NCBI GenBank assembly: GCA_963704725.1
Contig: OY969934.1
Span: 1,685,138-1,749,137 of the forward strand
Reading direction: 5' to 3'
DNA length: 64,000 nucleotides
From: an uncultured Actinomycetes bacterium
GTDB lineage: Bacteria > Actinomycetota > UBA4738 > HRBIN12
The notes beneath the pieces are model-generated. The model was not told the DNA's origin, did not search any database, and worked only from the letters and a program-made list of their open reading frames with translations. Made by a program: the position numbers and the translations under genes. Numbering within the stretch: position 1 is the first letter of the stretch; each line of letters begins with the position of its first letter. Below, piece by piece: positions 2,707 to 63,314 of this stretch.

Positions 2707-4713
2707 ATGGCCGACCAACTCTTCGAGATCGCCCGGCGCACGTTCGACACCCCCGAGTTCCGGGGGATGGAGTTCATCGAGACCGATTGCAGGACCATCA
2801 TCAACCGCGTCCCCGGCTCGTACCTCCCGTTCAACTGGACGATCAACCCGTACCGGGGATGCTCGCATGCGTGTAGTTACTGCACGTCCGGCGATACCCC
2901 GGTCCTGATGGCCGATGGCCGGACGAGGCCCATCGCGAAGGTCGAGGTGGGGGATCGGATCTACGGGACCGTGCGCCGGGGTCGGTACCGGAGGTACGTC
3001 ACGACGCCGGTACTCGCCCATTGGTCCACGGTGAAGCCCGCCTATCGGGTCACACTCGAGGACGGCACCGAGCTGATCGCGAGCGGCGACCACCGGTTCC
3101 TCACGGAGCGAGGATGGAAGCACGTCACCGGGAAGGGTTCGGGCCGCGAGTGCCGGCCCTTCCTGACCACGAACAACGAGCTCCTGGGCGTCGGCGGCTT
3201 CGCCGTAGCGCCTGCTGAGGATGACGACTATCGGCGCGGCTACCTCACGGGCATGATCCGTGGCGACGGACAGATCGGCTCGTACGCGTACCCGGCAAGG
3301 AACGGACGGTCCCGAGCAGTGCATCGATTCCGGCTCGCTCTCGTGGACGGCGAGGGGCTCGATCGGGCGCGCATCTATCTGTCCCGGGAGGGAGTCGAGA
3401 CGACGCCGTTTCAGTTCCAGCAAGCGACCGGGCGGCATCGGCGGATGGGCGCTATCCGATCGCAGCGTCGGGCCGACGTCGAGCGGATCCGCGAGGTCAT
3501 CGCCTGGCCGGCCCGATCCACGAACGCTTGGCGGAAGGGGTTCCTCGCCGGCGTCTTCGACGCCGAGGGGAGTTTCAGTGGCACCCTCCGCATCGCGAAT
3601 TGCGACCCGCAGATCCTCGGCACGACGACTGCGTGTCTGGACGCGCTCGGCTTCTCGCATCGGTTGGAGACGACCATCGACCGCAAGGGGCTGGCCTACG
3701 TCCGGCTCCTCGGCGGTCTCCGAGAGGTCCTCCGCTTCTTCCACACGGTCGATCCCGCCATCACGAGGAAGCGAGACATCGCGGGGATCGCGATCAAGAG
3801 CGATGCGCCACTCCGGCTCGTCTCGGTCGAGCCGCTCGATCTCGACCTCCCCTTGTACGACATCACCACCGGGACCGGGGACTTCATCGCGGACGGCGTG
3901 GTGAGCCACAACTGCTTCGCGCGGCCCACGCACACGTTCCTCGACATGAACGCCGGGAGCGACTTCGAGCGCAAGATCGTGGTGAAGGTCAACGCGCCCG
4001 ACGTGCTGCGCCGGCAGCTCGCCGCCAAGCGCTGGAAGGGCGAGGGCATCGCCATGGGGACCAACACCGACCCGTACCAGCGGGCCGAGGGGCGCTACCG
4101 GTTGATGCCGCGGATCGTGGAGGCCCTCGCGGACTTCCGGAACCCGTTCTCGATCCTGACCAAGGGCACGCTGATCCTGCGCGATCTCGACCTGCTCGTC
4201 GACGCGGCGCGGGTGGCCGACGTCGCCACCGCCTTCTCCATCGGCACGCTGGACGAGGACGTGTGGCGGCGGACGGAGCCCGGCACGCCGCACCCGCGCA
4301 AGCGGATCGAGGCCGTCGCGGCTCTCAACGCCGCCGGGATCCCGTGCGGGGTCCTCATGGCGCCGATCCTGCCGGGGATCAGCGATCACCCCCGTCAGCT
4401 CCGGGAGGTCGCCCGGGCGGCGATCGACGCAGGCGCGACCCACGTCTCCCCGATCCTCCTGCACCTGCGGCCGGGTGTCCGCGAGGAGTTCATGCCCTGG
4501 CTGGCCGAGCACTACCCGGATCTCGTGGAGCGATACGAGGCGATGTACCGGACGCCGTACGCGTCGCCGGCGGATCGCAAGCGGGTCGGATCGACCGTCG
4601 GGAGCATCGTCCGGTCGCTCGGAGGCACCCGGCGGGAGCGGGCGGCTCCGCATCGGTGGTCCGGCCGGGGAGACGGCGGCGGCGGGTCCGGGGAGCAGCT
4701 CAGCCTCGTCTGA
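2707..4713 (+). CDS. radical SAM protein of the SplB / Rv2578c-like family (COG1533), interrupted by an in-frame intein
   Basis: ORF 2632..4713. N-extein ends RGCSHACSY and C-extein resumes CFARPTHTFLDMN, reconstituting the family CxxxCxYCFAR Fe-S motif. Start taken at MADQLFEIARR (2707); 2632 is the alternative. Confidence 0.85.
   Translation: MADQLFEIARRTFDTPEFRGMEFIETDCRTIINRVPGSYLPFNWTINPYRGCSHACSYCTSGDTPVLMADGRTRPIAKVEVGDRIYGTVRRGRYRRYVTTPVLAHWSTVKPAYRVTLEDGTELIASGDHRFLTERGWKHVTGKGSGRECRPFLTTNNELLGVGGFAVAPAEDDDYRRGYLTGMIRGDGQIGSYAYPARNGRSRAVHRFRLALVDGEGLDRARIYLSREGVETTPFQFQQATGRHRRMGAIRSQRRADVERIREVIAWPARSTNAWRKGFLAGVFDAEGSFSGTLRIANCDPQILGTTTACLDALGFSHRLETTIDRKGLAYVRLLGGLREVLRFFHTVDPAITRKRDIAGIAIKSDAPLRLVSVEPLDLDLPLYDITTGTGDFIADGVVSHNCFARPTHTFLDMNAGSDFERKIVVKVNAPDVLRRQLAAKRWKGEGIAMGTNTDPYQRAEGRYRLMPRIVEALADFRNPFSILTKGTLILRDLDLLVDAARVADVATAFSIGTLDEDVWRRTEPGTPHPRKRIEAVAALNAAGIPCGVLMAPILPGISDHPRQLREVARAAIDAGATHVSPILLHLRPGVREEFMPWLAEHYPDLVERYEAMYRTPYASPADRKRVGSTVGSIVRSLGGTRRERAAPHRWSGRGDGGGGSGEQLSLV
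2881..3912 (+). mobile_element. intein (344 aa) with LAGLIDADG-type homing endonuclease domain
   Basis: Block A CTSGDTPVLMADG at the N-terminal splice junction; block B-like SGDH; two LAGLIDADG-like motifs (GYLTGMIRGDG, KGFLAGVFDAEGSF); C-terminal DFIADGVVSHN followed by +1 Cys. Coordinates from ORF arithmetic (aa 84-427 of the 2632 ORF). Confidence 0.85.
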
Positions 4714-6348: not shown

Positions 6349-7248
6349 TCACGAGGCGGCCAGGATCTGCCAGCTCGGCGTGAACTCCTTGCCCTCGTCG
6401 CCCGTCAGCACGAGCTCCCCGGTCGCGTCGGCGTCGGCGGTGCACACGTTCATCGTCCGGTCGCGGATGCAGGTCCAGGCGATCCGCGTCCCGTCGGGCG
6501 ACCAGACGGGGAAGACGTCGAGCCGCTCGTTGACCGTGAGCCGGGTCGGGCCGGAGCCGTCGGCGGCCATGACGAACAGCTCGTACTGGCGGTGGCCGCG
6601 AGTGCTGGCGAACAGGATCCGGGTCCCGTCGGGCGACCAGTCCGGATGCACGTCGGAAGCGCGGGACTCGGTGAGCCGCGTCAACACTCCGGTCGTCAGG
6701 TCCTTCACGTAGATGTCGAGGCTCCCGGCGCGGTCGGACATGAACAGCAGCTTCGTCCCGTCGGGTGAGTAGCTCCCGGACAGGTCGTCGCCCCGACGGT
6801 TCGTGAGGCGCTGCTCCACCCCGGTGACGACGTCGACGGTGTAGAGCTCGAAGTTCCCGTCCCGAAGGCTCGCGAGCACGATCGAGCCGCCGTCGGGGGC
6901 CCACGATTCCGGGAAGTCGGGGGCGTCGTTGAACGTGAGCTGCCGTACGTCGGAGCCGTCCGCGTTCATCAGGAACGCCTCGGGGTCTCCGTCGCGCAAG
7001 CTGGTGAAGGCGATGCGCGTCCCGTCGGGCGAGAAGCGGGCCTGGAAGTCGTCCGCCGGATCGTTCGTGAGCTGCGTCGGCTCCCCGCCGTCGGGGTCGA
7101 TCGTGTACACGTCGAAGTCCCCGTCGGCGTTCGAGTCGAACGCGATGAGGCCGTTCGCCCCCGGGAACGTCGCCGACGCGGGGGTCGTCATCCCCGCCAA
7201 GAGACCGAGCACGAGGCCGGCGCGCGCCGGCCACCGGAACCACGCCAT
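6349..7248 (-). CDS. secreted TolB-like beta-propeller protein (PD40 / WD40-like repeats)
   Basis: C-terminal 299 aa of track ORF 6349..8178, starting MAWFRWPARAGLVLGLLAGMTTPASA (signal peptide); repeated FSPDGTRIAF / YSPDGTKLLF / WSPDGTRILF units. The upstream 300 aa is Arg/Gly-rich shadow. Confidence 0.8.
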   Translation of the reverse strand: MAWFRWPARAGLVLGLLAGMTTPASATFPGANGLIAFDSNADGDFDVYTIDPDGGEPTQLTNDPADDFQARFSPDGTRIAFTSLRDGDPEAFLMNADGSDVRQLTFNDAPDFPESWAPDGGSIVLASLRDGNFELYTVDVVTGVEQRLTNRRGDDLSGSYSPDGTKLLFMSDRAGSLDIYVKDLTTGVLTRLTESRASDVHPDWSPDGTRILFASTRGHRQYELFVMAADGSGPTRLTVNERLDVFPVWSPDGTRIAWTCIRDRTMNVCTADADATGELVLTGDEGKEFTPSWQILAAS

Positions 7249-7316
7249 GAGAGCCCCCCTCCGCGGTCGGGGCCATCGTAGGCGCTCGCGGGGCCGGTGC
7301 GAAGCAGGAAGCCGGA

Positions 7317-8273
7317 TCAGCGGGCGAGGGCGGCGCCGGACTCGAGCGCCCGGCGGAGCTGCTTGCCGGCGTGATAGCTCGAGCGGACGAGCGGCCCCGC
7401 CTCGACGTGGGCGATCCCGAGCGACTCGCCGAGGCGCTTCCACTGCGCGAACTCGTCCGGGGCAACCCACCGGTCGACCGGGAGGTGGAAGGGCGTCGGC
7501 TGGAGGTACTGCCCCATCGTGAGGATCTCGGCACCCGAGCTCGCCACATCCTGGAGCGCCTGCGGGATCTCCTCCGGACGCTCGCCCATGCCGAGGATGA
7601 GGTTCGACTTGGTGACCTGACCGGCACGCAGGCGCTTCGCCGTCCGCAAGACGTCGAGCGTGCGGTCGTAGCCGAACGCCGGGCGGATCCGCTCGTGGAG
7701 GCGCCGAACCGTCTCCAGGTTGTGGGCGAACACGTCGGGCTCGGCCTCGACGACGGTGGCGATGTCGCGCTCGCCCCCCTTGAAGTCGGTGGGCAGCACC
7801 TCGACGCCGCATCCCGGGACGGCCTCGCGCACGGCGCGGATCGTGGCCGCCCAGATCCGGGCGCCGCCGTCCTCCAGGTCGTCGCGGGCGACCCCGGTCA
7901 CGACCACGAACCGCAGGCCCATGTCGCGAACGGCCTCGGCGACGCGGCGAGGCTCGTCCTCGTCCACGGGGTCGGGCTTGGCGGTCATGACGTCGCAGAA
8001 GCCGCACCGCCTCGTGCATCGGTCGCCGAGGATCAGGAACGTCGCCTCGCGCTCCTCCCAGCACTCGCCGATGTTTGGGCACATCGCCTCCTCGCACACG
8101 GTGTGCAGGGAGCGCCCACGCATGATGCCCTTGAGCTCCGAGTAGTTCGGCCCGGTCTGCAGCTTCACCTTGAGCCACGGAGGCTTGCGATCGCCGTGGG
8201 GCGGTGCGCCGGCCGTCGAGACGATCGGCAGGTGGAGGCGGCGACGATGCGGGTTGTGGTCCCGGTCGGACAT
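7317..8273 (-). CDS. lipA: lipoyl synthase
   Basis: 318 aa; N-terminal Cys cluster [12 protein letters not shown] and radical SAM motif CTRRCGFC. Confidence 0.95.
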
Positions 8274-8283
8274 CCCGGGAAGT

Positions 8284-11200
8284 CTAGCCCGACCTCACCC
8301 CATCGACGGCCGGGCGGCCGCGTGCGAACGCTCGACGAGCGGATCCGCCGGTGTCCTCGGGGGGCTGACCGGGCAGGAACACGCGGAACGAGGCTCCCCC
8401 TCCCTCCCGCTCCTCGACCCAGGCGCGGCCGCCGTGCAGATCCGTGAACATCGCGACGAGCGAGAGCCCGATCCCCGTCCCGGGGGCATGGGGGGAGGCC
8501 GTCGGGCCCTGGCGGAAGGGTTCGAAGATCGCGGACTGCAGCTCCTCGGGCACACCGGGACCGTCGTCCTCGACGGCCAGGAACGCCCCGCCGCCACCGG
8601 CCCACACGCGGACGAAGATCGTGACGTCCGGACCCGTGTGCCGAACGGCGTTCATGACGAGGTTCTCCACGATCCGCTCCACCTTGGGTCCGTCCACGGG
8701 GACGACGACGGGCTCGGCCTCGACGGACACGAACCGGTCTCCGAGCTCCAGGGAGTCGACGGCCCCTCGGACGAGCGCGCCCACGTCGGTCGGCCGGAGC
8801 TGTGGCGTCACGTTCCCGCGCGAGAGTCGGTCGATGTCGAGCAGATCCTTCAGCAGCCGGTCGAGCTTGCGGGCGTTCTGCGCCACGCGCCGGGTGAGGT
8901 CGCGGCGATCCTCGGCGGAGAGCTGCTGCTGCTCGAGCGTGAGCGAGAGGCCGAGGATCGACGTCAGCGGACTGCGGAGCTCGTGTGAGACGGCGGCCAG
9001 GAACGTGTTCTTCATCTCGTCCAGGGCGCGAAGGCCCTCGGCGGCTTCGCGCTCGCGCCGCTCGCTGTCGCGGAGGGTCTGCTCCGCGAGCTTCCGCTCG
9101 GTGATGTCGAACATCACGCCCTGGACGAACAGCGGCGTGCCGTCCTCGTCGAGGACGAACGCGGTCTCGTCGTGCACCCAGGCCTCCCGGCCGTCCGGCG
9201 TCACGATGCGGTATTCGCCCTGCCACGACCGGCCCGCCTCGGCCGCCTCGAGGTAGCTCCGGCGCATCTCGTCGCGGAACTCGGGGGTCATCAGGTCGAG
9301 CCACAGGGCGGGCTCGTCGATGAAGCGCTGGGACGGCACGCCCATGATCTGCTGGATCTGCGGGCTCACGTAGACGGTCTTCATGGACTGGTCGGGGCGA
9401 TCGACGTAGATCGCCGCGGGAACGTGCTCGACGATTGCCCGGTAGCGCGCCTCGGTCTCGCGAAGCTGCTCCTCGGCCTGCCGTCGCTCGGTGATGTCGA
9501 GCATCACCCCCTGCGAGAACAGGATGTTGCCCTCGGCATCGCGCACCACCGTCGCGTGGTCCGTGACCCACATCCAGCGTCCGTCCTTGGCCCGGAAGCG
9601 GTACTCGAGCACGAACGGGTCGCCGTCGCGGCCGTGCCGCTCGGCGGCGGCGAGCACCCGTTCGCGATCGTCGGGGTGGATGCCGTCGATCCACAGGTCG
9701 GGATCCGACGTCCACTCCCGCGGCATGTAGCCGAACAGGGCCTCGATCTGCGGGCTCACGTACATCTTCGTGTGCCGCTCGTCGACCGCGTCGACGTAGG
9801 TGACGGCCGGCATGCTCTCGACGAGCGAGCGGTACCGCTCCTCGGCCTCACGCAGGTGGTGCTCGGCCGTCTTCTGCGGCGTGATGTCGAACCGGATGCC
9901 CTGCCAGTACAGGGGGTTGCCGCCGTCGTCGCAGATCAGGGCGGCCTCGTCGTGGACCCAGATCCACCGGCCGTCCCTGTGACGCTGCCGGTACTCGACG
10001 ACGAACGGCTCGCCCGTGCGCTCGGCCCGCTCGTCGGCCTCCATGGCCCGGGCTCGATCGTCCTGATGGAGGGTCTGGAGCCAGCGCTCGTAGTCGGACT
10101 CGCCCCACTCCTGGACCGTGTAGCCGGTCAGCCGTTCGAGCTGCGGGCTCATGTATGTGAGCGGCGCGCCGGGACCGAGACCTTGGATGTAGGTCACGGC
10201 GGGGATCGTCTCGACGAGCTTGCGGTATCGGAGCTCGGCCTGGGTCCGAAGGGTCTCGGCCCGGGCCCGTCCGATGGCCGCCCCCAGGGTGTCGGCGGCG
10301 GCCTTCAGGGCGTCGACCTCCGGAGCCGGCCACTCGCGCTCGGTCTCGCAGTCGTCCAGCGCCAGGAACCCCCACCACTCGTCGCCCAGGAAGACCGGCA
10401 CGAGGACGCGCGAGCGGACGCCGTCGTGCAGGGGCCCCGTCCGTTCCGCCGCGGGGAAGTCGCGGGTCCGACCCTGGAGCGTCCGTCCCGAGGAGAGGGC
10501 GGCCTGCCACCGGACGTGACCCTTGGCGTAGGGCGACGGCTCCTCGGCCTGCGGGAGCGGCAGGACGCCGTCGGCGACCCACTGGTGGCGCAGGCGCATC
10601 CCGACCTCGCCGCCCTCGAGGGTCTCGTTCTCGAACAGCGAGACCCGCCCGGACGCCGAAGCGCGACCGAGCCGTTCCAGGACCTCGGGCAGCACCGGCT
10701 GCCATTCATGGGCCTTGAGCAGTCGCTCGGCCGCGAACCCGGCCGCCTCGAGGACGGCGTCGCGCCGCGACAGCATCTCCTCGGCGATCTTGGCCTGCGT
10801 GACGTCGATGAGGACCCCCTGCCAGCGGTTGGGCGAACCGTCCTCGTGCCGCAGCAGGACGGCCTCGTCGCGGACCCAGACGACCCGGCCGTCCCGGCCC
10901 AGGAAGCGGTACTCGACCGAGAACGGATCGCCGGTGTCGTTCGTCCGCCGCGACTCCTCGAGCACCCGCTCCCGGTCGTCGGGGTGCAGGTGGTCGATCC
11001 AGAACCTGGGATCGGCCGTCCTGGCTTCTGGCGGGTAGCCGAACATCTGCTCGTACTGCGGGCTGACGTAGATCGCCGTGCTCGTGTCGTCGACGGCGTC
11101 CTGGTACACGACGACGGGGAGCTGCTCGACGAGCGTCCGGTAGGTCTCCTCGGCCTCTCGAAGGCGAAGCTCGGCCTCCTTGCGCGCCGTGACGTCGATG

Positions 11201-46408: not shown

Positions 46409-47821
46409 GTGGCCGTCACCCAGGAAGAGCATCTCCGGGAGCTCAGCAAGGGCTACCGCTTCGGCTGGAAGGACCCGTCCCACTCGGTCTTCACGCCGAA
46501 GATGGGCCTGAGCGCCGCGGTGGTCGAGGAGATCTCGGCGCTGAAGGACGAACCCGACTGGATGCGGAAGTACCGGCTGAAGGCGCTGAAGCACTTCGAG
46601 CAGCGCCCCATGCCGTGGTGGGGGGCCGACCTGTCGGGGATCGACTTCGACGATATCTACTACTTCATCCGCTCGACCGAGAAGCAGGCGCAGAACTGGG
46701 ACGAGCTGCCCGACGACATCCGCGGGACGTGGGACAAGCTGGGGATCCCGGAGGCGGAGAAGAAGTTCCTGGGCGGGGTCTCGGCGCAGTACGAGAGCGA
46801 GGTCGTCTACCACAAGATCAAGCAGGAGCTCGACGACATGGGCGTCCTGTTCGCAGACATGGACACGGCGCTCCGCGACCACCCCGACATCGTCAAGGAA
46901 TACTTCGGGACGATCATCCCGCCCAACGACAACAAGTTCGCCGCGCTGAACTCGGCGGTGTGGTCGGGGGGATCGTTCATCTACGTCCCGCCCGGCGTGC
47001 ACGTCGACATCCCGCTGCAGGCGTACTTCCGGATCAACGCGGAGGCGATGGGGCAGTTCGAGCGGACGATGATCATCGCGGACGAGGGCAGCTACGTGCA
47101 CTACGTCGAGGGCTGCTCGGCCCCGATCTACACGCGCGATTCGCTCCACTCGGCGGTCGTCGAGATCATCGTGAAGAAGGGCGCCCGCGTCCGCTACACG
47201 ACCATCCAGAACTGGTCGAACAACGTCTACAACCTCGTTACCAAACGCGCGGCAGCGTACGAGGACTCCGTGATGGAGTGGATCGACGGCAACATCGGCT
47301 CGAAGGTGACGATGAAGTACCCGTCTATCTACCTGCTCGGCAAGGGCGCCCGGGGCGAGGTCCTCTCAGTGGCGTTCGCCGGTGAGGGGCAGCACACGGA
47401 CGCCGGCGGCAAGGCGATCCACGCCGCGCCGTTCACCACCTCGATCATCAACAGCAAGTCGGTGAGCAAGGGCGGCGGGCGCACCGGGTACCGAGGGCTC
47501 GTCCGCATCGAGCCGGGTGCGCACCACGCGAAGTCAATGGTCCGCTGCGACGCGCTGATCCTCGACGAGATCTCGCGCTCGGACACCTACCCGTACGTCG
47601 AGGTCGAGGAGCAGACCGCGCAGCTCGGCCACGAGGCGTCGGTCGCCCGGATCGGCGAGGACCAGCTCTTCTACCTCATGAGCCGTGGGCTGTCCGAAGC
47701 CGAGGCATCGGCGATGATCGTGAACGGCTTCATCGAGCCGATCACCCGCGAGCTGCCCATGGAGTACGCCGTCGAGCTCAACCGCCTGATCGAGCTCCAG
47801 ATGGAAGGCGCGATCGGCTAG
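46409..47821 (+). CDS. sufB: Fe-S cluster assembly protein SufB (intein-free)
   Basis: In-frame C-terminal 470 aa of track ORF 45689..47821 from GTG 46409 (RBS GGGAAGGA); conserved SufB sequence throughout. Confidence 0.95.
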
Positions 47822-48098
47822 CGAGCGTCAGCGGCTCCAACACGGGCGAGCGGAGGATCGCCGTCCGGATGGCGTCCTCGTGGGACGGGCAGCAGGCGCT
47901 CCACGTCAGGTGATCGCCCGCACGGGAGGCGCGGATGTCGATGGGCCTCCTCCCGTGCGCCGGGCACCGCACGCGCCGGATCCTCGCCCGCGCGGCAGCG
48001 ACACCATCTCTCAGGGCCTCGCGCTTGACGCACTCCAACCACTCGTCGGCAGACACGGGGCGGCCATGCGCGTCCCGGAACTCGATATCGAGCTTCAC
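47778..48098 (-). CDS. hypothetical small protein (Cys/His-containing)
   Basis: C-terminal ~106 aa of track ORF 47778..48356 from GTG about 48098 (AGGAG upstream); CPAHGRR...[13 protein letters not shown]. Its 3' end overlaps the sufB stop by about 44 nt convergently. Confidence 0.3.
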
Positions 48099-48130
48099 CA
48101 GCACCTCCTGGCTTGATCGCGGGGGAGCGT

Positions 48131-49321
48131 TCACGGTGGACCTCGGTCCTCCAGCCGCGACCCATCCGGCCGGAAGAACGCCGGGCGCCCGTCGACGAGC
48201 TCGAGACGGAACCCGCCGGGCCGATGGACCAGCCGGTGGTGACGGCGGCACAGCAGAATCAGGTTCTGGATCGCGGTCGGACCGCCGTCGGCCCAGTGGA
48301 CCACATGATGAGAGTCGCACCACGTGTGAGGGCGTTCGCAGCCGGGGAACCGGCACCGGCGATCTCGAACCACCACGGCGCGCCGCATCGACGGCGGCAC
48401 CACGGGAGTCCTTCGTCCCACGTCCAGCGGCTCGGACCGTCCGGACAGCACCACACGGGTGACCGACGCGTCGCAGGCAAGTCGCCGAGCGGTCTCGACC
48501 GAGACGGGTCCGACGTCGTCGAGCTCGCTCGGGCCGGCCGCGGCGCCTGTCAGGGCGTCGGCCGGGAGCGTCACGGTGACGTGTGGTCGCTCGCCCGCCA
48601 CGCGGGGACGGTCGGCCAGGTCAAGCCACTGCCGGCAGATCTCGACCAGGGCGTCCGCGCGGCGCTGGGCGGGCGTCCGCTCGTCCTCGGGCCCTCGCGA
48701 TCGTGACTCGGCGTCGAGCACGGCTCGAAGCGCCGTGAGCAGGGTCTCACCGCCCTCGGGGTCGAGATCGAAGTCGCCCCGGACCATCCCGAGGAACGTC
48801 GGCGAGGCATGAAGTCGCCGTCGCGCGTGAAGCGCTTCGTCCCCGTCCCTCGCCTGCTCCCGCTCGACGATCTGGCGCCAATGCGCGGCGACCCGCTGCA
48901 GGGCCCCCGTCGAGTGGATCCGGGCGGCTTCCACGAGCTGGGCCTCCGAACGCGCGAACGCCTCTCGGTCGAGGTCGTGCGCCGTGGTGAGCACGCGCGC
49001 CGCGGAGAGCGACAGCTCGCCGTCCTCGAGCGCCCGCCGGGTCACCGGCATGTCTTCGAGCGCCCGAGCGACGCGCACCGACTCGCGGGCCGTCCCCCAG
49101 GCGACGTTGAACCTCGCGTTGAGCCAGGAGGCCGAGGACAGGTTCCCGTCGCGCTCGAACAGCCGACGCCGCTCGATGTCCGCCAGCCGCCGGAGCCGTT
49201 CGACCTCGAGCAGCTCCATCGCCCGGTGCAGCTCGGCGAAGTCCTCCTCGATGACCGCGTCCGGCAGCTCGGCAAGGAGCTCGGACTGCAACGCATCGAT
49301 GGCCGAGCGAAGCTCGCTCAA
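48131..49321 (-). CDS. DUF222 plus HNH endonuclease domain protein (REP13E12-like family)
   Basis: 396 aa; C-terminal HNH motif CRFPGCERPHTWCDSHHVVHWADGGPTAIQNLILLCRRHH preceded by the family-typical N-terminal region. Confidence 0.85.
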   Translation of the reverse strand: MSELRSAIDALQSELLAELPDAVIEEDFAELHRAMELLEVERLRRLADIERRRLFERDGNLSSASWLNARFNVAWGTARESVRVARALEDMPVTRRALEDGELSLSAARVLTTAHDLDREAFARSEAQLVEAARIHSTGALQRVAAHWRQIVEREQARDGDEALHARRRLHASPTFLGMVRGDFDLDPEGGETLLTALRAVLDAESRSRGPEDERTPAQRRADALVEICRQWLDLADRPRVAGERPHVTVTLPADALTGAAAGPSELDDVGPVSVETARRLACDASVTRVVLSGRSEPLDVGRRTPVVPPSMRRAVVVRDRRCRFPGCERPHTWCDSHHVVHWADGGPTAIQNLILLCRRHHRLVHRPGGFRLELVDGRPAFFRPDGSRLEDRGPP

Positions 49322-49361
49322 CGACTGTCCCCCCTCCCGAACGTACGTTCGAGATCGTAGC

Positions 49362-49751
49362 TCATGGCAGTGACATCGAACGCGCGACGTCGGCCACGGT
49401 CATCGGCTGGGGGAGGTCGGCCGCGAGGATCGCCCCGTCGAGGCCGAGCCGGCCGACCGCCAGCAACCACGGCGTGACCGAGGGGTCGATCACGCCGGCG
49501 ACGACGAGCAGCGCCATCGCGATGGCGAGGTCGAGCTCGCACGTCGGCCCACCGGAGATGGGCGGCTCGAGGTGAACGAAGGCGAGCGGCACCTCGTCGA
49601 GCAGCCCATCGTTGACGAGGGCGGCTCGCACGCGATCGGCCGTGGTGCGGCCGTATCCGGGCGGCAAGCCCATGATCTGAAAGCGATCCCCTGGCCTGGC
49701 CACCAGCTCGACGAGCCGGTCGTCGACCACACCCCACACGCGAACGCCCAC
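49362..49751 (-). pseudogene. 5' fragment of a comM/yifB-family (Mg-chelatase-like ATPase) gene
   Basis: 129 aa ORF matching only the ComM N-terminal domain (MGLPPGYGRTTADRVRAALVNDG...CELDLAIAMALLVVAG...GRLGLDGAIL), then a stop; no AAA+ Walker region anywhere downstream. Confidence 0.55.
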
Positions 49752-49869
49752 GCACGACCTCGAAGGAGCGGACGGCCGAGGGAGAAGGCGACCCTATCGC
49801 CGGGTACCGACAGCCACGGCGGTCGGGGGTCGTCCGTATAGTGGCCGCATCACGGGCAAGGGGCAGAGC

Positions 49870-51816
49870 GTGGACAACTTCCAGGAGAAAGTCGCCTTCA
49901 TCTGGTCGGTGGCCGACCTGCTCCGCGGCGACTACAAGCAGTCCGAGTACGGCAAGGTCATCCTGCCGCTGACCGTGCTCCGCCGTCTCGATTCCGTGCT
50001 GGAGCCGACCAAGTCGAAGGTCCTGAAGCGGCACAAGGAGCTCCAGGGCCGCCTCGAGAACGTCGAGCCGGTGCTCACGCAGATCACCGGGCACGGCTTC
50101 TACAACACGTCGCCCTTCACGTTCCGGACGCTCCTCGACGACCCGGACCACGTCGGCGAGAACCTGCGCCGCTACATCCTCGGGTTCGACCAGGGGACGC
50201 AGGACGTGATCGCCAAGTTCGAGCTCGAGGGCCAGATCCGGCGCCTCGAGCGCTCGAACCTCCTGTACATGGTCGTCTCGAAGTTCTGCGACATGGACCT
50301 GCACCCGGACCGGGTCTCGAACATCGAGATGGGCTACGTGTACGAGGAGCTCGTCCGCAAGTTCTCGGAGCTGTCGAACGAGACCGCCGGAGAGCACTTC
50401 ACCCCGCGCGAGGTCATCCGCCTGATGGTGAACATCCTGTTCGCCGGCGACCGGGACCTGCTGGCGAAGAAGGGCGCGATCGCCACGCTGTACGACCCGG
50501 CCTGCGGGACCGGTGGCATGCTGAGCGTGGCCGAGGACCACCTCCGGGCCCTGAACCCGGACGCCAAACTCCGCGTGTTCGGGCAGGAGCTGAACGCCGA
50601 GACGTACGCGGTCTGCCGCTCGGACATGATGCTGAAGGGCCAGGACGCGTCGAACATCTACTTCGGCAACTCGTTCACCGAGGACGGGTTGCCTGACTCC
50701 ACGTTCGACTACCTACTGGCGAATCCGCCGTTCGGCGTCGAGTGGAAGAAGGTCCAGGATCGGGTCCGCCAGGAGCACGACCGTGACGGCTACCAGGGGC
50801 GCTTCGGCGCCGGTTTGCCGAGGATCAACGACGGCTCGCTGCTGTTCCTGCAGCACATGATCTCGAAGATGAAGCCGCCCGAGAAGGGCGGCAGCCGCCT
50901 CGCCATCGTCTTCAACGCGTCGCCGCTGTTCACCGGCGCCGCCGGCTCGGGCGAGTCCGAGATCCGCCGCTGGATCATCGAGAACGACTCGCTCGAGGCG
51001 ATCGTCGGCCTGCCGGACCAGCTCTTCTACAACACCGGGATCTCGACGTACTTCTGGGTCCTCACGAACCGGAAGACCCCCGAGCGCCGGGGGAAGGTCC
51101 AGCTCGTCGACGCCCGCGAGCTGTGGACCAAGATGCGCAAGAGCCTCGGCGAGAAGCGCAAGGAGATCTCGAGCGAGCAGATCGAGGAGATCACGCGCCT
51201 GTGCGCGGAGGTCCAGGAGGGCGATCGCTGCAAGATCCTGCGGAACGAGGACTTCGGCTACCGCCGGATCACCGTCGAGCGACCACTCCGCGTGCGGTGG
51301 GAAGTGACCGAAGAGACGGCCGCGACGCTCGGCGCCTCGAAGGCGCTCACGAAGCTCGACGACGATGCTCGTGAGCGGCTGCTCGAAGCCGTCGATGGGC
51401 TGAAGGGAACGTCGACGACGGATCGGGACGTATTCGCGGAGAAGGTCGCTGGAGTGCTCGACGCCATGGGGAAGTTCGGCAAGCCAATGGAGAGGGCTAT
51501 CATCGAGGCGGCGACGGTCCGGGACCCCGAGGCCCCGCTCGTGACCGACAAGAAGGGGAATCCGGAGCCCGATCCTGAGCTGCGCGACTTCGAGAACGTG
51601 CCGCTCACCGAGGACGTCGGTGAGTACATGGAGCGCGAGGTCCTCCCCTTCGTCGACGCATGGGTCGACGAGTCGAAGACGAAGGTCGGGTACGAGATCC
51701 CGTTCACCCGGCACTTCTACGTGTACGTGCCTCCCCGGCCTCTCGAAGAGATCGACTCCGATATCAAGGCGCTCGAGCAGGAGATCCTCCAGCTCCTCCG
51801 CGAGGTAGCTGAGTGA
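49870..51816 (+). CDS. hsdM: Type I restriction-modification system, methyltransferase subunit
   Basis: 648 aa; N6-adenine MTase motifs DPACGTGG and NPPFG; GTG start. Confidence 0.95.
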   Translation: MDNFQEKVAFIWSVADLLRGDYKQSEYGKVILPLTVLRRLDSVLEPTKSKVLKRHKELQGRLENVEPVLTQITGHGFYNTSPFTFRTLLDDPDHVGENLRRYILGFDQGTQDVIAKFELEGQIRRLERSNLLYMVVSKFCDMDLHPDRVSNIEMGYVYEELVRKFSELSNETAGEHFTPREVIRLMVNILFAGDRDLLAKKGAIATLYDPACGTGGMLSVAEDHLRALNPDAKLRVFGQELNAETYAVCRSDMMLKGQDASNIYFGNSFTEDGLPDSTFDYLLANPPFGVEWKKVQDRVRQEHDRDGYQGRFGAGLPRINDGSLLFLQHMISKMKPPEKGGSRLAIVFNASPLFTGAAGSGESEIRRWIIENDSLEAIVGLPDQLFYNTGISTYFWVLTNRKTPERRGKVQLVDARELWTKMRKSLGEKRKEISSEQIEEITRLCAEVQEGDRCKILRNEDFGYRRITVERPLRVRWEVTEETAATLGASKALTKLDDDARERLLEAVDGLKGTSTTDRDVFAEKVAGVLDAMGKFGKPMERAIIEAATVRDPEAPLVTDKKGNPEPDPELRDFENVPLTEDVGEYMEREVLPFVDAWVDESKTKVGYEIPFTRHFYVYVPPRPLEEIDSDIKALEQEILQLLREVAE

Positions 51817-53111
51817 GGCAAGCATTCTCCATTGGCTCGAGTTGGCCGCTCACGAGACTCAAGCACCGAGTGGCATTCGCCGCAGGCGGGACGCCACCTG
51901 TGGATCGAACTGAGTACTGGGCGGAAGACAAGGGAGTGCCGTGGGTCACGATTGCGGATATGACTCGGGCGTTTCGCGTGACCACTACGGATCGCACACT
52001 GACTGAGGCGGGATTAGGCGTGATGAGACGTCGACTTGCGCCACCCGGCACCTTGTTGTTTGCGATGTATGCCAGCGTCGGCAAAGTGGGCCGGCTCGGG
52101 GTCGCGGCGACTTGGAATCAAGCGATTCTCGGCATGACGCCACGAGCAGGATGTTATGGCGGGTTCCTCGCCTATTGGCTCGAGGCGCTCCAACCAATCG
52201 TGCTTGGGTTGGCGCGAAGCAACACCCAGGACAACCTCAACGCAGAGCAGGTCGGCAACCTCCCATTCCCTACCATGCCTCTATCCATGCAGCGGGCGAT
52301 CGGCGACTTCCTCGACACCGAGATCGCTCGCATCGACGCGCTGCTCGACAAGAGGGGTCGGCTCCTCCGTCGACTGTCTGAGCGCAGGCGGTCAGTCACG
52401 TTCCTGGGAGTTACCGGCGTGCTAGCGCCCAGAGTCGCGACTCACGATCCAGGCCTTGCGTGGGCCCGCAAGATCCGTGCGCCCTGGCCTGCGGTCAAGC
52501 TCAAGCATGTCGCACGGCTTGGAACTGGCCACACGCCTAGCCGGACCCATTTGGAGTACTGGGAGGACTGCACCATCCCCTGGATCACGACCGGAGAGGT
52601 TCAGCAGGTTCGGGATGATCGAGCGGAGGTCATCACCGAGACGCGAGAGAAGATCAGTGAGGTCGGCCTCGCGCACTCGGCGGCCGAACTACACTCGGCA
52701 GGCACGGTCGTGCTGTGCAGAACCGCCTCAGCCGGCTACTCGGCAATCATGGGGTCGGACATGGCGACGAGCCAGGACTTCGCCACGTGGACGTGCTCGG
52801 AACGCCTCCTTCCCAGATACCTACTGATGTGCCTACGAGCGATGAGACCGGACCTCCTCGGACGGCTTGCGTTCGGCTCAACCCACAAAACGATCTACAT
52901 GCCCGACATCGAAGGGCTGAAGATCCCCTTGCCCACCGTTGAAGAGCAGCGGGAAGTAGTTGACGAGATCGACCGACAACTCTCGAAGATCGATGCACTC
53001 GCGGAGCGCATCGAGCGCCAGTTGGGCCTCCTCGCCGAGCGCCGTCAGGCGCTGATCACGGCTGCGGTCACCGGTCTCGTGGACGTGACCATGGACAGCG
53101 CCGAGACATAG
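51813..53111 (+). CDS. hsdS: Type I restriction-modification system, specificity subunit
   Basis: 432 aa; two target-recognition-domain-like halves separated by conserved coiled-coil regions; 4-nt overlap with hsdM. Confidence 0.9.
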   Translation: MRQAFSIGSSWPLTRLKHRVAFAAGGTPPVDRTEYWAEDKGVPWVTIADMTRAFRVTTTDRTLTEAGLGVMRRRLAPPGTLLFAMYASVGKVGRLGVAATWNQAILGMTPRAGCYGGFLAYWLEALQPIVLGLARSNTQDNLNAEQVGNLPFPTMPLSMQRAIGDFLDTEIARIDALLDKRGRLLRRLSERRRSVTFLGVTGVLAPRVATHDPGLAWARKIRAPWPAVKLKHVARLGTGHTPSRTHLEYWEDCTIPWITTGEVQQVRDDRAEVITETREKISEVGLAHSAAELHSAGTVVLCRTASAGYSAIMGSDMATSQDFATWTCSERLLPRYLLMCLRAMRPDLLGRLAFGSTHKTIYMPDIEGLKIPLPTVEEQREVVDEIDRQLSKIDALAERIERQLGLLAERRQALITAAVTGLVDVTMDSAET

Positions 53112-53113
53112 GC

Positions 53114-61261: not shown

Positions 61262-62041
61262 ATGACCGAACCGGTGACGCTGGAGATCCGGGGCCTGGAG
61301 GCCTCGGTGGAGGACAAGCCGATCCTGAAGGGGATCGACCTGGTCGTGAAGCAGGGCGAGACCCACGCCCTGATGGGGCCGAACGGGTCGGGCAAGTCGA
61401 CGCTCGCCAACGTCCTCATGGGGCGGCCCGGATACCGGCTCACGGCCGGACAGGTCCTGTTCAAGGGCGAGGACATCACCAAGCTCACGGCCGACAAGCG
61501 AGCGGAGCGAGGGCTGTTCCTGGCGATGCAGTACCCGGTCGAGATCCCCGGCGTCTCGGTCGTGAACTTCCTTCGGACGGCGTACAAGAACGTCAAGGGT
61601 GAGGAGATCAGCGCCCTGGCCTTCCGCAAGCACATGAAGGAGAAGATGAACCTGCTCGGGGTCGAAGACGCCATGGTCCAGCGATACGTGAACCAGGGCT
61701 TCTCCGGCGGCGAGAAGAAGAAGAACGAGGTCCTGCAGCTCGCGGTGCTCGAGCCCGAGATCGCGGTGCTCGACGAGACGGACTCCGGTCTGGACATCGA
61801 CTCGCTGAAGGCGGTGGCGACCGGGATCGCCCAGCTGATCGGCCCCAACCTCGGCGTGTTGCTCATCACGCACTACCAGCGCATCCTCGACTACATCACG
61901 CCCGACTTCGTTCACGTGATGGTGGATGGACGTATCGTGAAGTCGGGCGGCAAGGAGCTCGCACACGAGCTCGAGGACAAGGGCTACGAGGGCCTGCGCA
62001 AGGAGCTCGGCCTCGAGGATGCCGCGGCGGCGACCACGTGA
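61262..62041 (+). CDS. sufC: Fe-S cluster assembly ATPase SufC
   Basis: 259 aa, from internal ATG of track ORF 61133..62041; Walker A GPNGSGKST, signature FSGGEKKKNE, Walker B VLDETDSG. Confidence 0.95.
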   Translation: MTEPVTLEIRGLEASVEDKPILKGIDLVVKQGETHALMGPNGSGKSTLANVLMGRPGYRLTAGQVLFKGEDITKLTADKRAERGLFLAMQYPVEIPGVSVVNFLRTAYKNVKGEEISALAFRKHMKEKMNLLGVEDAMVQRYVNQGFSGGEKKKNEVLQLAVLEPEIAVLDETDSGLDIDSLKAVATGIAQLIGPNLGVLLITHYQRILDYITPDFVHVMVDGRIVKSGGKELAHELEDKGYEGLRKELGLEDAAAATT

Positions 62042-62060
62042 TCGGGGAGGGGAGGGTGCG

Positions 62061-63314
62061 ATGTCGGTGACCGAAGAGCGGTCCGCGGGCCGTCTGGACG
62101 TCGCCCGGGTCCGGGCGGACTTCCCGATCCTGGAGCGGGTCATCAACGGCAAGCCGCTCGTCTACCTGGACTCCGCCGCGACCTCGCAGAAGCCGGCCGC
62201 CGTGATCGACGCCGAGGCCGACTTCTACCGGAACCACAACGCCAACGCGCACCGCGGCATCTACGCGCTCGCGGAGGAGGCGACCACGCTGTACGAGGAC
62301 GCCAGGGCTTCGCTGGCCCGGTTCGTCGGCGCCCCACAGCCGGAGACGATCGTGTTCACGCGCGGGACGACCGAGTCCACCAACCTCGTCGCGTACGCCT
62401 GGGCCAGGCGGTTCCTGTCCGAGGGCGACGAGATCCTCCTCACCGACATGGAGCACCATTCCAACATCGTGCCGTGGCAGCTCGCGGCGCGGACCACCGG
62501 CGCCGAGCTGCGGTACCTGCCCCTGACCGACGAGGGCCTGCTCGACCTGTCCGAGCTCGGCTCGCTGCTCACCGAGCGCACCAAGCTCCTGGCCGTCACG
62601 GGGATGTCCAACTCGCTGGGGACGCTGCCGCCGCTCCGCGAGCTCGTGGAGGCGGCGCACGCCGTGGGGGCGCTCGTCCTGGTGGACGGGGCGCAGCTCG
62701 TCCCACACGTGCCGGTGGACGTCACGGCGCTCGACTGCGACTTCCTCACGATCAGCGGACACAAGATGCTGGGCCCCACCGGGTCGGGCGGCCTGTACGG
62801 CAAGCTCGAGCACCTCGAGGCCATGGACCCGTTCATCTCGGGCGGCCACATGATCGACGAGGTCTTCCACGACCGCTCGACGTGGAACACGGTCCCGTTC
62901 AAGTTCGAGGGCGGCACGATGAACATCGCGCAGGAGGCTGCGCTCGGGACCGCGATCACGTATCTGGAGAGCCTCGGGATGGACGCCGTTCGCGAGCACG
63001 AGGAGGAGATCACGTCATACGCGATCGACCGCCTCCTCGACGTCGGCGCGACCGTGTACGGACCCAAGGACGTGAGCGTGCGCGGCGGCGCGGTCTCGTT
63101 CTGGTACAAGGACGTGCACCCCCACGACCTCGCGACGATCCTCAACGAGGAAGGGGTCGCGATCCGTGCGGGGCACCACTGCAACCAGCTCGTCATGCGC
63201 CGGTTCGGGGTGCCGGCGACGGCGCGCGCGAGCTTCTACGTGTACAACACCAGGGACGAGGTCGACGCGCTCATCGAGGCCCTGGCCAAGGCCGAGAGCG
63301 TGTTCGGGTTCTGA
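62061..63314 (+). CDS. sufS: cysteine desulfurase SufS
   Basis: Track ORF 62019..63314, start at MSVTEERS (RBS GGGAGGGGAGGG); PLP-lysine SGHKM and active-site Cys in HHCNQ. Confidence 0.95.
   Translation: MSVTEERSAGRLDVARVRADFPILERVINGKPLVYLDSAATSQKPAAVIDAEADFYRNHNANAHRGIYALAEEATTLYEDARASLARFVGAPQPETIVFTRGTTESTNLVAYAWARRFLSEGDEILLTDMEHHSNIVPWQLAARTTGAELRYLPLTDEGLLDLSELGSLLTERTKLLAVTGMSNSLGTLPPLRELVEAAHAVGALVLVDGAQLVPHVPVDVTALDCDFLTISGHKMLGPTGSGGLYGKLEHLEAMDPFISGGHMIDEVFHDRSTWNTVPFKFEGGTMNIAQEAALGTAITYLESLGMDAVREHEEEITSYAIDRLLDVGATVYGPKDVSVRGGAVSFWYKDVHPHDLATILNEEGVAIRAGHHCNQLVMRRFGVPATARASFYVYNTRDEVDALIEALAKAESVFGF

Follow-up and report, generated by a model that had tools for sequence, protein, structure and literature searches.

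We analysed a stretch of 64,000 nucleotides (nt) of high-GC DNA from an uncultured Actinomycetes bacterium (contig OY969934.1, positions 1,685,138 to 1,749,137), referred to at its full length as the window, with a focus on a 129-amino-acid open reading frame (ORF) at 49362–49751 on the minus strand. This ORF is intact and belongs to a lineage-specific protein family of uncultured Actinomycetota. The members of the family are stand-alone proteins which consist only of a shortened, non-proteolytic Lon-like domain and carry no ATPase. The small gene occupies the outermost position in a type I restriction–modification (R-M) island and adjoins a cassette encoding a DUF222-HNH endonuclease. The explanation that we favour covers the identity and position of the gene, its putative regulation by DNA damage, the origin of the tail of its product, its presumed descent from a longer Lon-only gene and a proposal for its role; taken as a whole, we regard it as probable.

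An intact family of ATPase-less Lon-like proteins

The ORF matches the Pfam profile PF13541 (ChlI) with an E-value of 9.9e-7 and 29.1 bits (cut-off 27); the match spans residues 22–114 of the ORF and positions 10–100 of the 121 of the profile. Against TIGR00368, which describes full-length YifB/ComM, it scores 17.7 bits and thus falls below the equivalog cut-off of 362.4. Both results agree with the first-pass annotation of this DNA, according to which the ORF corresponds to the N-terminal domain of ComM only. Apart from this sub-threshold match and a weak IscB match confined to the HNH domain of the neighbouring nuclease, NCBIfam returned nothing on the locus. The first-pass annotation had also stated that no ATPase core follows, and tblastn searches with two full-length ComM proteins bear this out: the N-domain is the only match in the whole 64-kb window, which contains no AAA+ core of the PF01078 kind with its Walker A and B motifs. 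One ComM alignment extended past the stop of the small gene into the DUF222 region, and was discounted and attributed to Ala/Arg/Gly-rich composition. A 3' half of comM, which the first-pass annotation had advised looking for elsewhere in the genome, was not found in the window or in the related loci; remnants of the ComM AAA+ core or of Mg_chelatase_C are absent from the window and from about 100 related loci.

Based on a search of 5.8 billion proteins, the small protein has 84 homologues with 42–63% identity, each of 75–168 amino acids, while a profile search gave 591 matches, the best 120 of which are all 128–168 amino acids long. In a hidden Markov model (HMM) scan of 1.84 billion cluster representatives the family forms a discrete clade at 81–198 bits, and the ComM-like proteins of every length form a plateau at or below 75 bits. 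The ORF therefore aligns end to end with a complete family of small proteins. Its earlier description as a truncated comM relic has to be abandoned in view of this uniform length, the discrete clade, the signs of selection and the promoter of its own, which are presented below. Database names given to the family (‘magnesium chelatase’, ‘ATPase with chaperone activity’) are mis-annotations, as is the label of a comM stump.

An alignment of 30 family sequences over a core of 115 codons contains 18 invariant and 17 near-invariant residues, and the start of the proteins (M-G-V-R-V-W-G) is conserved. Ser and Lys are both absent from the invariant and the 90%-conserved columns, and a Ser-Lys catalytic dyad of the Lon type (MEROPS S16) is therefore excluded. 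The position of the Lon Ser motif seems to be replaced by an invariant L73-D74, as we take to be the case in ComM and RadA as well. Concerning the fold, the family profile has one match among PDB sequences, which is ComM (8rxd, residues 21–96, E-value 1.7e-8). The AlphaFold2 (AF2) model of the small protein has a predicted local distance difference test score (pLDDT) of 91.9 and covers about two thirds of the Lon domain of roughly 170–180 residues, with a template modelling (TM) score of 0.49 when normalised to the 180-residue 8rxs chain. What the protein is without is roughly the last 45 residues of the Lon domain.

The gene has the pattern of a genuine coding sequence in a high-GC genome, with a GC content of 0.885 at third codon positions (GC3) and of 0.477 at second positions (GC2). 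Pairwise ratios of nonsynonymous to synonymous substitution rates (dN/dS) over the 115-codon core are 0.20–0.50 at dS values of 0.5–1.4, compared with dN/dS values of 0.09–0.21 for DUF222-HNH, 0.10–0.20 for SufB and 0.14–0.25 for HsdM. The start codon and the GAGG ribosome-binding site are conserved across loci. These values point to purifying selection on the family.

The small protein has no match in PADLOC, and the same is true of the DUF222-HNH protein, a small Cys/His ORF downstream of it and orf187 of the island. Phage collections matched neither the small protein nor DUF222-HNH, IMG/VR contains no relatives of the small family and BFVD contains no stand-alone mini-Lon. The search of genome collections gave two loci only, both in metagenome-assembled genomes (MAGs). 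Another ATPase-less use of the ComM N-domain is found in the protein P0147 (489 amino acids), in which a ChlI/Lon-like N-domain is fused directly to DprA (DNA_processg_A) with no AAA+ core.

Promoter motifs, the embedded tail and the portable nuclease cassette

The elements around the small gene are the following, with the evidence in brackets:

49833–49843, plus strand: hsdM promoter element TCCGTATAGTG, -10 TATAGT (intergenic alignment)
49791–49812, minus strand: P1, a PafBC/RecA-NDp-type motif TGTCGGTA-N8-TAGGGT (consensus match, conservation)
49362–49751, minus strand: stand-alone mini Lon-like gene of the ChlI or ComM-N-terminal type, 129 amino acids, GTG start
49354–49375, minus strand: P2, an NDp-type motif TGTCACTG-N8-TACGAT (consensus match)
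49337–49352, minus strand: LexA (SOS) box TCGAACGTACGTTCGG (consensus match, conservation)
48131–49321, minus strand: DUF222-HNH endonuclease of the REP13E12 type, 396 amino acids, TTG start (Pfam)

The published PafBC/RecA-NDp consensus is tGTCgg(N10)tA(N3)T (PMC8635444). With up to one mismatch it is matched exactly twice in the 64-kb window, by P1 and P2, against 0.41 matches expected. P1 is located 39 nt upstream of the GTG of the small gene and lies back to back with the hsdM -10 TATAGT. It is present in all 13 of the 13 loci that have sequence at this place, 30–41 nt upstream of the start, including L019 and L020, which encode the longer relatives described below. Concerning the hsdM promoter element, the block CACTATACG(G/A)A is invariant in an intergenic alignment of seven loci and is present in 11 loci. 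Both P1 and P2 are thus candidate members of the PafBC (RecA-NDp) regulon, as judged by their motifs. A scan of 47700–49950 detected neither a sigma-70 consensus promoter nor an intrinsic terminator, and an Rfam scan of 47000–50500 gave nothing credible.

The LexA consensus of Mycobacterium tuberculosis is TCGAAC(N4)GTTCGA (PMC3381160). Allowing up to one mismatch, the window contains two such SOS boxes against 0.20 expected; up to two mismatches give 17 matches against 4.2 expected from shuffles, an excess which may stem from weak LexA sites or from the composition of codons and palindromes. The box at 49337–49352 has one mismatch and its end lies 15 nt before the TTG start of DUF222-HNH. The P2 -10 TACGAT abuts this box, and P2 overlaps the final codons and the stop of the small gene. 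In all orthologous loci P2 has been kept and an SOS box with no or one mismatch is found at this position; across 15 aligned loci the pattern TGTC...TAnnnT does not vary. As an internal control, the second box of the window is found at 2677–2692, 15 nt upstream of a radical-SAM gene (2707–4713) which we presume to be the counterpart of Rv2578c; an intein bearing a LAGLIDADG homing-endonuclease domain splits this gene. Rv2578c/Rv2579 is a LexA site verified by chromatin immunoprecipitation (ChIP) in M. tuberculosis (PMC3381160).

The overlap with P2 accounts for the C-terminus of the small proteins. Translation of TGTC...TAnnnT-TCGAAC...GTTCGA yields the conserved tail C-x-T-P-v-v-G-F-E-R-M-F-E. 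The window, L002 and L014 read the tail in another frame or shorten it but have retained the DNA motifs, which means that it is the DNA that is conserved and not the peptide. The small ORF runs into P2, and its tail is translated promoter and operator DNA. This is a clean case of a peptide motif that is in fact an embedded promoter and operator, and calls for caution in motif-based protein annotation. The 4-nt overlap between the stop of the small gene and the start of DUF222-HNH was considered as a sign of translational coupling and this was rejected, because the TGA belongs to the start context of the cassette (NTGAGC) and is present even where no upstream ORF exists.

The nuclease of the window, which is present there as a single copy, matches the Pfam domains DUF222 (PF02720, 98.7 bits, E-value 5e-28) and HNH (28.4 bits, E-value 2e-6). 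Its CxxC...DxHH...N...CxxHH motif is intact, and all of 26 orthologues have the CxxC, DSHH, N and CRRHH residues. The best 120 homologues are 71–85% identical and about 396 amino acids long. The AF2 model of DUF222-HNH, built from a shallow alignment, has a pLDDT of 51 and was not used for a fold search.

Orthologues with 65–77% identity occupy at least three unrelated contexts in metagenomes, with the same promoter cassette, in agreement with the mobile appearance that the first-pass annotation had ascribed to DUF222-HNH genes. In L017 and L018 (contigs of 0.6 and 1.1 Mb) the nuclease gene is located between an extracytoplasmic-function (ECF) sigma gene and the genes of a phosphoesterase and an M23 peptidase; these loci lack the small gene, the suf genes and the R-M system, and still have TGTCAGTG-N8-TAGAGT-TCGAACATGCGTTCGG upstream of the nuclease. 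In L053 the nuclease gene is divergent from sufD, with the cassette intact and no R-M island. Most of 80 further metagenomic nuclease loci are also without the small gene, which indicates that the nuclease does not need the small protein. In the 15-locus alignment, TGTC is the exact point at which the similarity between unrelated contexts sets in; from there it takes in the -10, then the SOS box and the start codon. Concerning the unique nuclease upstream regions, 36 of 55 (65%) have an SOS box with up to one mismatch, 46 of 55 have one with up to two and 25 of 55 (45%) have the NDp pattern, compared with 1.2%, 2.4% and 0.5%, respectively, in random windows of 74 nt. Since it is also found in unrelated loci without the small gene, the DUF222-HNH gene with its own NDp motif, -10 and LexA box is a portable unit, the 5' edge of which is defined to the base. 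Plasmid collections gave two weak DUF222-HNH matches (below 30% identity).

The homology of the short ORFs ends at this 5' edge of the cassette. Two distant relatives, P0143 (177 amino acids, locus L019) and P0148 (178 amino acids, locus L020), are full-size Lon-only proteins. The gene of P0143 adjoins an hsdM with 75% identity and has the same P1 and the same hsdM -10, with no DUF222-HNH in the 267 nt after it; the gene of P0148 also carries P1. A search of JGI metagenomes found no close relatives of the 177-amino-acid outgroup protein. Given that the full domain is found in the Lon-only outgroups, ComM and RadA, the core of about 115 residues appears to be the derived state. The short gene is thus best seen, on comparison of the sequences, as an old and fixed, shortened derivative of a stand-alone Lon-only gene: an island-borne gene for about 177 amino acids, located beside hsdM, would have been shortened where the DUF222-HNH cassette came to abut it, and its product would then have been kept.

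The R-M island in the suf operon and its relatives

The remaining features of the locus are listed below:

46409–47821, plus strand: sufB (Pfam)
47822–59628: whole insert of 11.8 kb at the sufB/sufD junction (Pfam on suf genes, GC, relatives)
47778–48098, minus strand: 106-amino-acid Cys/His ORF, AGGAGG ribosome-binding site, GTG start
49870–51816, plus strand: hsdM, divergent from the small gene (Pfam, PADLOC)
51813–53111, plus strand: hsdS (Pfam, PADLOC)
53114–56042, mixed strands: unannotated cargo between hsdS and hsdR
56075–59578, plus strand: hsdR, 1167 amino acids, C-terminal Schlafen/AlbA_2 (Pfam)
59629–60939, plus strand: sufD (Pfam)
within 61133–62041, plus strand: sufC (Pfam)
62019–63314, plus strand: sufS (Pfam)

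An insert of 11.8 kb splits the usual sufB–sufD junction; it carries the type I R-M island together with the small gene and DUF222-HNH. As the first-pass annotation had described, DUF222-HNH and the Cys/His ORF follow downstream of the small gene and run into the 3' end of sufB. Its proposal of an integration event stands insofar as an R-M island has been inserted and the juxtaposition with the cassette has probably shaped the small gene; the insertion lies between sufB and sufD and not in comM, and the ancestor was probably a Lon-only gene. The GC content is 0.61–0.69 over much of the insert (from about 49500, with the minimum across hsdS) and 0.70–0.75 upstream of about 43000, and the suf genes that flank the insert have island-like GC. 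Neither direct nor inverted repeats were detected at the island ends. HsdR matches the Pfam domains HSDR_N, SWI2_SNF2, ResIII, T1R_D3-like and SLFN_AlbA_2, and the Schlafen/AlbA_2 domain (residues 1003–1151) is part of an architecture common to all syntenic relatives. The gap between hsdR and sufD is 50 nt, and hsdM, hsdS, hsdR, sufD, sufC and sufS are all on the plus strand; for these reasons transcription of the R-M genes may continue into sufDCS.

About 14 distinct actinobacterial contigs with the short form share this arrangement, in which hsdR ... hsdS and hsdM are divergent from the small gene, and the latter is followed by DUF222-HNH, which converges with sufB, a rhodanese gene and sufT. 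Locus L001 is a short contig carrying the sequence of the window itself (100% identical). The identities to the window are 87–92% for SufB, 81–85% for HsdM, 80–85% for HsdR, 73–76% for DUF222-HNH, 48–63% for the small protein and 25–30% for HsdS. The genes sufD and sufS are found beyond hsdR in the window, L014 and L030.

Derived states of the locus are also found. In L014, hsdM, hsdS and most of hsdR are lost and the small gene and DUF222-HNH are kept; the small gene is therefore not strictly dependent on the R-M system. The L014 island also contains, in a MAG, a gene for a UvrD-like helicase with an HRDC domain (6878–8890) beside the hsdR fragment. Two independent deletions, in L030 (5792–7155) and L055 (1138–2352), join the last 45–60 codons of hsdR to codon 12 or codon 50 of DUF222-HNH; as a result the R-M genes are gone, together with the small gene and the nuclease promoter, and island remnants persist. 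In L028 (2157–6000), the TGTC motif between the small gene and DUF222-HNH is the exact entry point of an insertion sequence (IS; DDE_Tnp_1 and SWIM transposase) and of a gene for an N6/N4 methyltransferase that has an Mrr-like domain; the SOS box has remained with the nuclease.

The island has two variable slots. The slot between hsdS and hsdR contains a Zn-ribbon-like orf187, a weak GIY-YIG-like ORF and unknown ORFs in the window (53114–56042). Its cargo differs in each relative (L003, L005, L008, L010 and L016) and includes VapBC, a PhdYeFM antitoxin, an AbiEi-like gene, an SMC-like ATPase and an HATPase_c_3 protein. The second slot is located between DUF222-HNH and sufB. In the window it is occupied by the Cys/His ORF, which overlaps the last 44 nt of sufB, is present elsewhere only in the closest relative L002 and in L001, and has no Pfam, NCBIfam or PADLOC match. 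L003 has an OGG-like glycosylase there (9880–10422), L010 an ORF for 151 amino acids of unknown nature (9648–10103), and in L005 and L008 the slot is empty.

Possible roles, alternatives and known systems

Because P1, P2 and the LexA motif are conserved, the small gene and DUF222-HNH are both presumed to be induced by DNA damage. P1, of the PafBC type, would drive the small gene, and P2, of the NDp type with its -10 abutting the LexA box, would drive DUF222-HNH. After DNA damage PafBC would activate both promoters. LexA would occlude P2 as well as read-through from P1, and its cleavage would unblock both, so that expression of both genes would rise.

The Lon domain of ComM and RadA is a planar hexamer scaffold with a pore of 18–23 Å through which double-stranded DNA passes (PMC11612176). 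By analogy, and speculatively, the small protein may take part in the DNA-damage response as a DNA-binding factor that forms rings or oligomers. Its target could be the neighbouring type I enzyme, or it could act jointly with the HNH nuclease. Of these two associations, the one with hsdM is the more constant, as it includes the outgroup locus L019. A role in damage-induced restriction alleviation (for background, see PMC4231737) is an attractive but unproven reading. In a specific form of it, which we put forward tentatively and consider rather doubtful, the mini Lon-like protein would be a novel damage-induced accessory of the type I R-M system, switched on by PafBC. It would bind DNA as a ring or oligomer, stem from the scaffold domain of ComM and RadA, and temper self-restriction or channel breaks made by HsdR or HNH into repair. 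If true, this would be a dedicated, island-encoded counterpart, in Actinomycetota, of the ClpXP-based restriction alleviation of Escherichia coli. The locus is also a candidate for connecting the signalling of DNA damage to a type I R-M island within the suf operon, which is essential.

Several observations weigh against the explanation that we favour. A Lon domain without its last 45 or so residues may not hexamerise. P2 of the window has TGTCAC instead of TGTCGG, and the SOS box next to it is imperfect by one position. The 4-nt overlap with DUF222-HNH is a by-product of the cassette start context and gives no evidence of coupling, more than 30 of the 55 DUF222-HNH orthologue loci are without the small gene, and L014 retains the small gene without hsdM and hsdS. 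Concerning the origin of the gene, the evidence for a full Lon-only ancestor comes from two short contigs, and no remnant of the missing C-terminal third of the domain is found in the window or in about 100 loci. Truncation at the 3' end is also indistinguishable from an internal deletion, and P0131 has an extra internal segment.

Among the alternatives, it is highly improbable that a full-length comM/yifB was interrupted by a mobile DUF222-HNH gene or an island and that the ORF is its decaying 5' stump. The match to the N-terminal domain of ComM only, the portability of DUF222-HNH, the end of the frame in the cassette promoter and the role of comM as an island target in Acinetobacter would all fit such a history. 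A decaying fragment is hard to reconcile, however, with a widespread family of uniform length which is under purifying selection and has its own promoter and ribosome-binding site. The nearest longer relatives are Lon-only proteins of 177–178 amino acids and not ComM proteins of 500, remnants of AAA+ or Mg_chelatase_C are absent from the window and about 100 related loci, and the position between hsdM and sufB is not the usual yraN–comM–dprA neighbourhood. We give equally little credence to a non-functional ORF, the frame of which would be open by chance or be preserved by constraints on regulatory DNA of hsdM and DUF222-HNH that overlaps it. It is true that about 15 codons at the end are under constraint as promoter DNA and not as peptide, and dN/dS is above that of the neighbouring genes; but the invariant and near-invariant residues of the core, the dN/dS of 0.2–0.5 at dS of 0.5–1.4, the strongly skewed GC3, the conserved start codon and GAGG site, and the confident predicted fold that matches a known domain all argue against this reading.

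Two alternatives accept a functional protein and differ in its partner. The small protein could be a dedicated partner of DUF222-HNH, encoded with it in a functional operon: a subunit which encircles DNA or oligomerises and which loads, restrains or targets the nuclease. DUF222-HNH is directly downstream in every short-form locus except the IS-disrupted L028, motifs of the same damage-responsive promoter class precede both genes, no terminator lies between them, and the Lon rings of ComM and RadA encircle double-stranded DNA. This possibility is nevertheless unlikely in our view: equally conserved orthologues (65–77% identity) have no small gene in most loci, the Lon-only gene of L019 is not followed by DUF222-HNH within the next 267 nt, the overlap of stop and start codons is a by-product, and the two proteins evolve at differing rates (about 50% identity for the small protein and about 75% for the nuclease). 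Alternatively, it could be the damage-induced restriction modulator of the R-M island, which, in the way of restriction alleviation, shields unmodified sites that repair or recombination creates, by binding DNA or HsdR. We know of no precedent for such a factor. L014 keeps an intact small gene after the loss of hsdM and hsdS and the truncation of hsdR, PADLOC has no match for the protein, and the adjacency could be purely historical, which leaves this alternative with a slim chance.

Compared with known systems, the small protein shares the Lon-like domain with ComM of Legionella pneumophila (PDB 8rxd, 8rxs and 8rxt) and with RadA/Sms (5lkq, 5h45 and 8rxc). It differs from both in that it has no ATPase, lacks about the last 45 residues of the domain and is encoded by a separate gene with a promoter that is of the damage type as judged by its motif. 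Lon-related domains also occur in two phage-defence proteins, BrxL of the bacteriophage exclusion (BREX) system and CalpL. There they are joined to AAA+ or SAVED domains, and CalpL is active as a protease; the small protein has no match in PADLOC. The comM gene of Acinetobacter baumannii is a target of AbaR/Tn6022-type resistance islands. The likeness there is a ComM-related frame that ends at the edge of acquired DNA; in A. baumannii, however, the island is bordered on its two sides by the halves of a full AAA+ comM, fragments which do not form a conserved family, whereas the present locus has no ATPase half and its short gene has been conserved under selection. With the PafBC and LexA regulons of mycobacteria the locus shares the matches to the consensus and the usual spacing to the start codon; it differs in that the P2 operator and promoter lie inside an upstream coding sequence, and its membership in these regulons is predicted from motifs alone.

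The nuclease resembles the REP13E12 proteins of M. tuberculosis (Rv0336, Rv0515, Rv1702c and Rv2100) in having DUF222 and HNH and, as judged from its orthologues across metagenomes, in occurring in several genomic contexts. The 13E12 DUF222-HNH family is not known to have an assigned function. A further likeness is the presence of a LexA box and/or RecA-NDp upstream: most 13E12 genes of M. tuberculosis are bound by LexA (six ChIP peaks) or have RecA_NDp (PMC3381160). The differences are that the present genes belong to apparently deep-branching uncultured Actinomycetota, have a 5' edge defined by TGTC and include a copy fixed between sufB and sufD. The link of 13E12 to the LexA and PafBC damage responses, known in M. 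tuberculosis, recurs in uncultured and apparently distant Actinomycetota, which suggests that it is old. What is new here is a family of ATPase-less mini Lon scaffolds with a putative damage-type promoter, located beside an HNH cassette that is predicted to be wired to LexA and PafBC.

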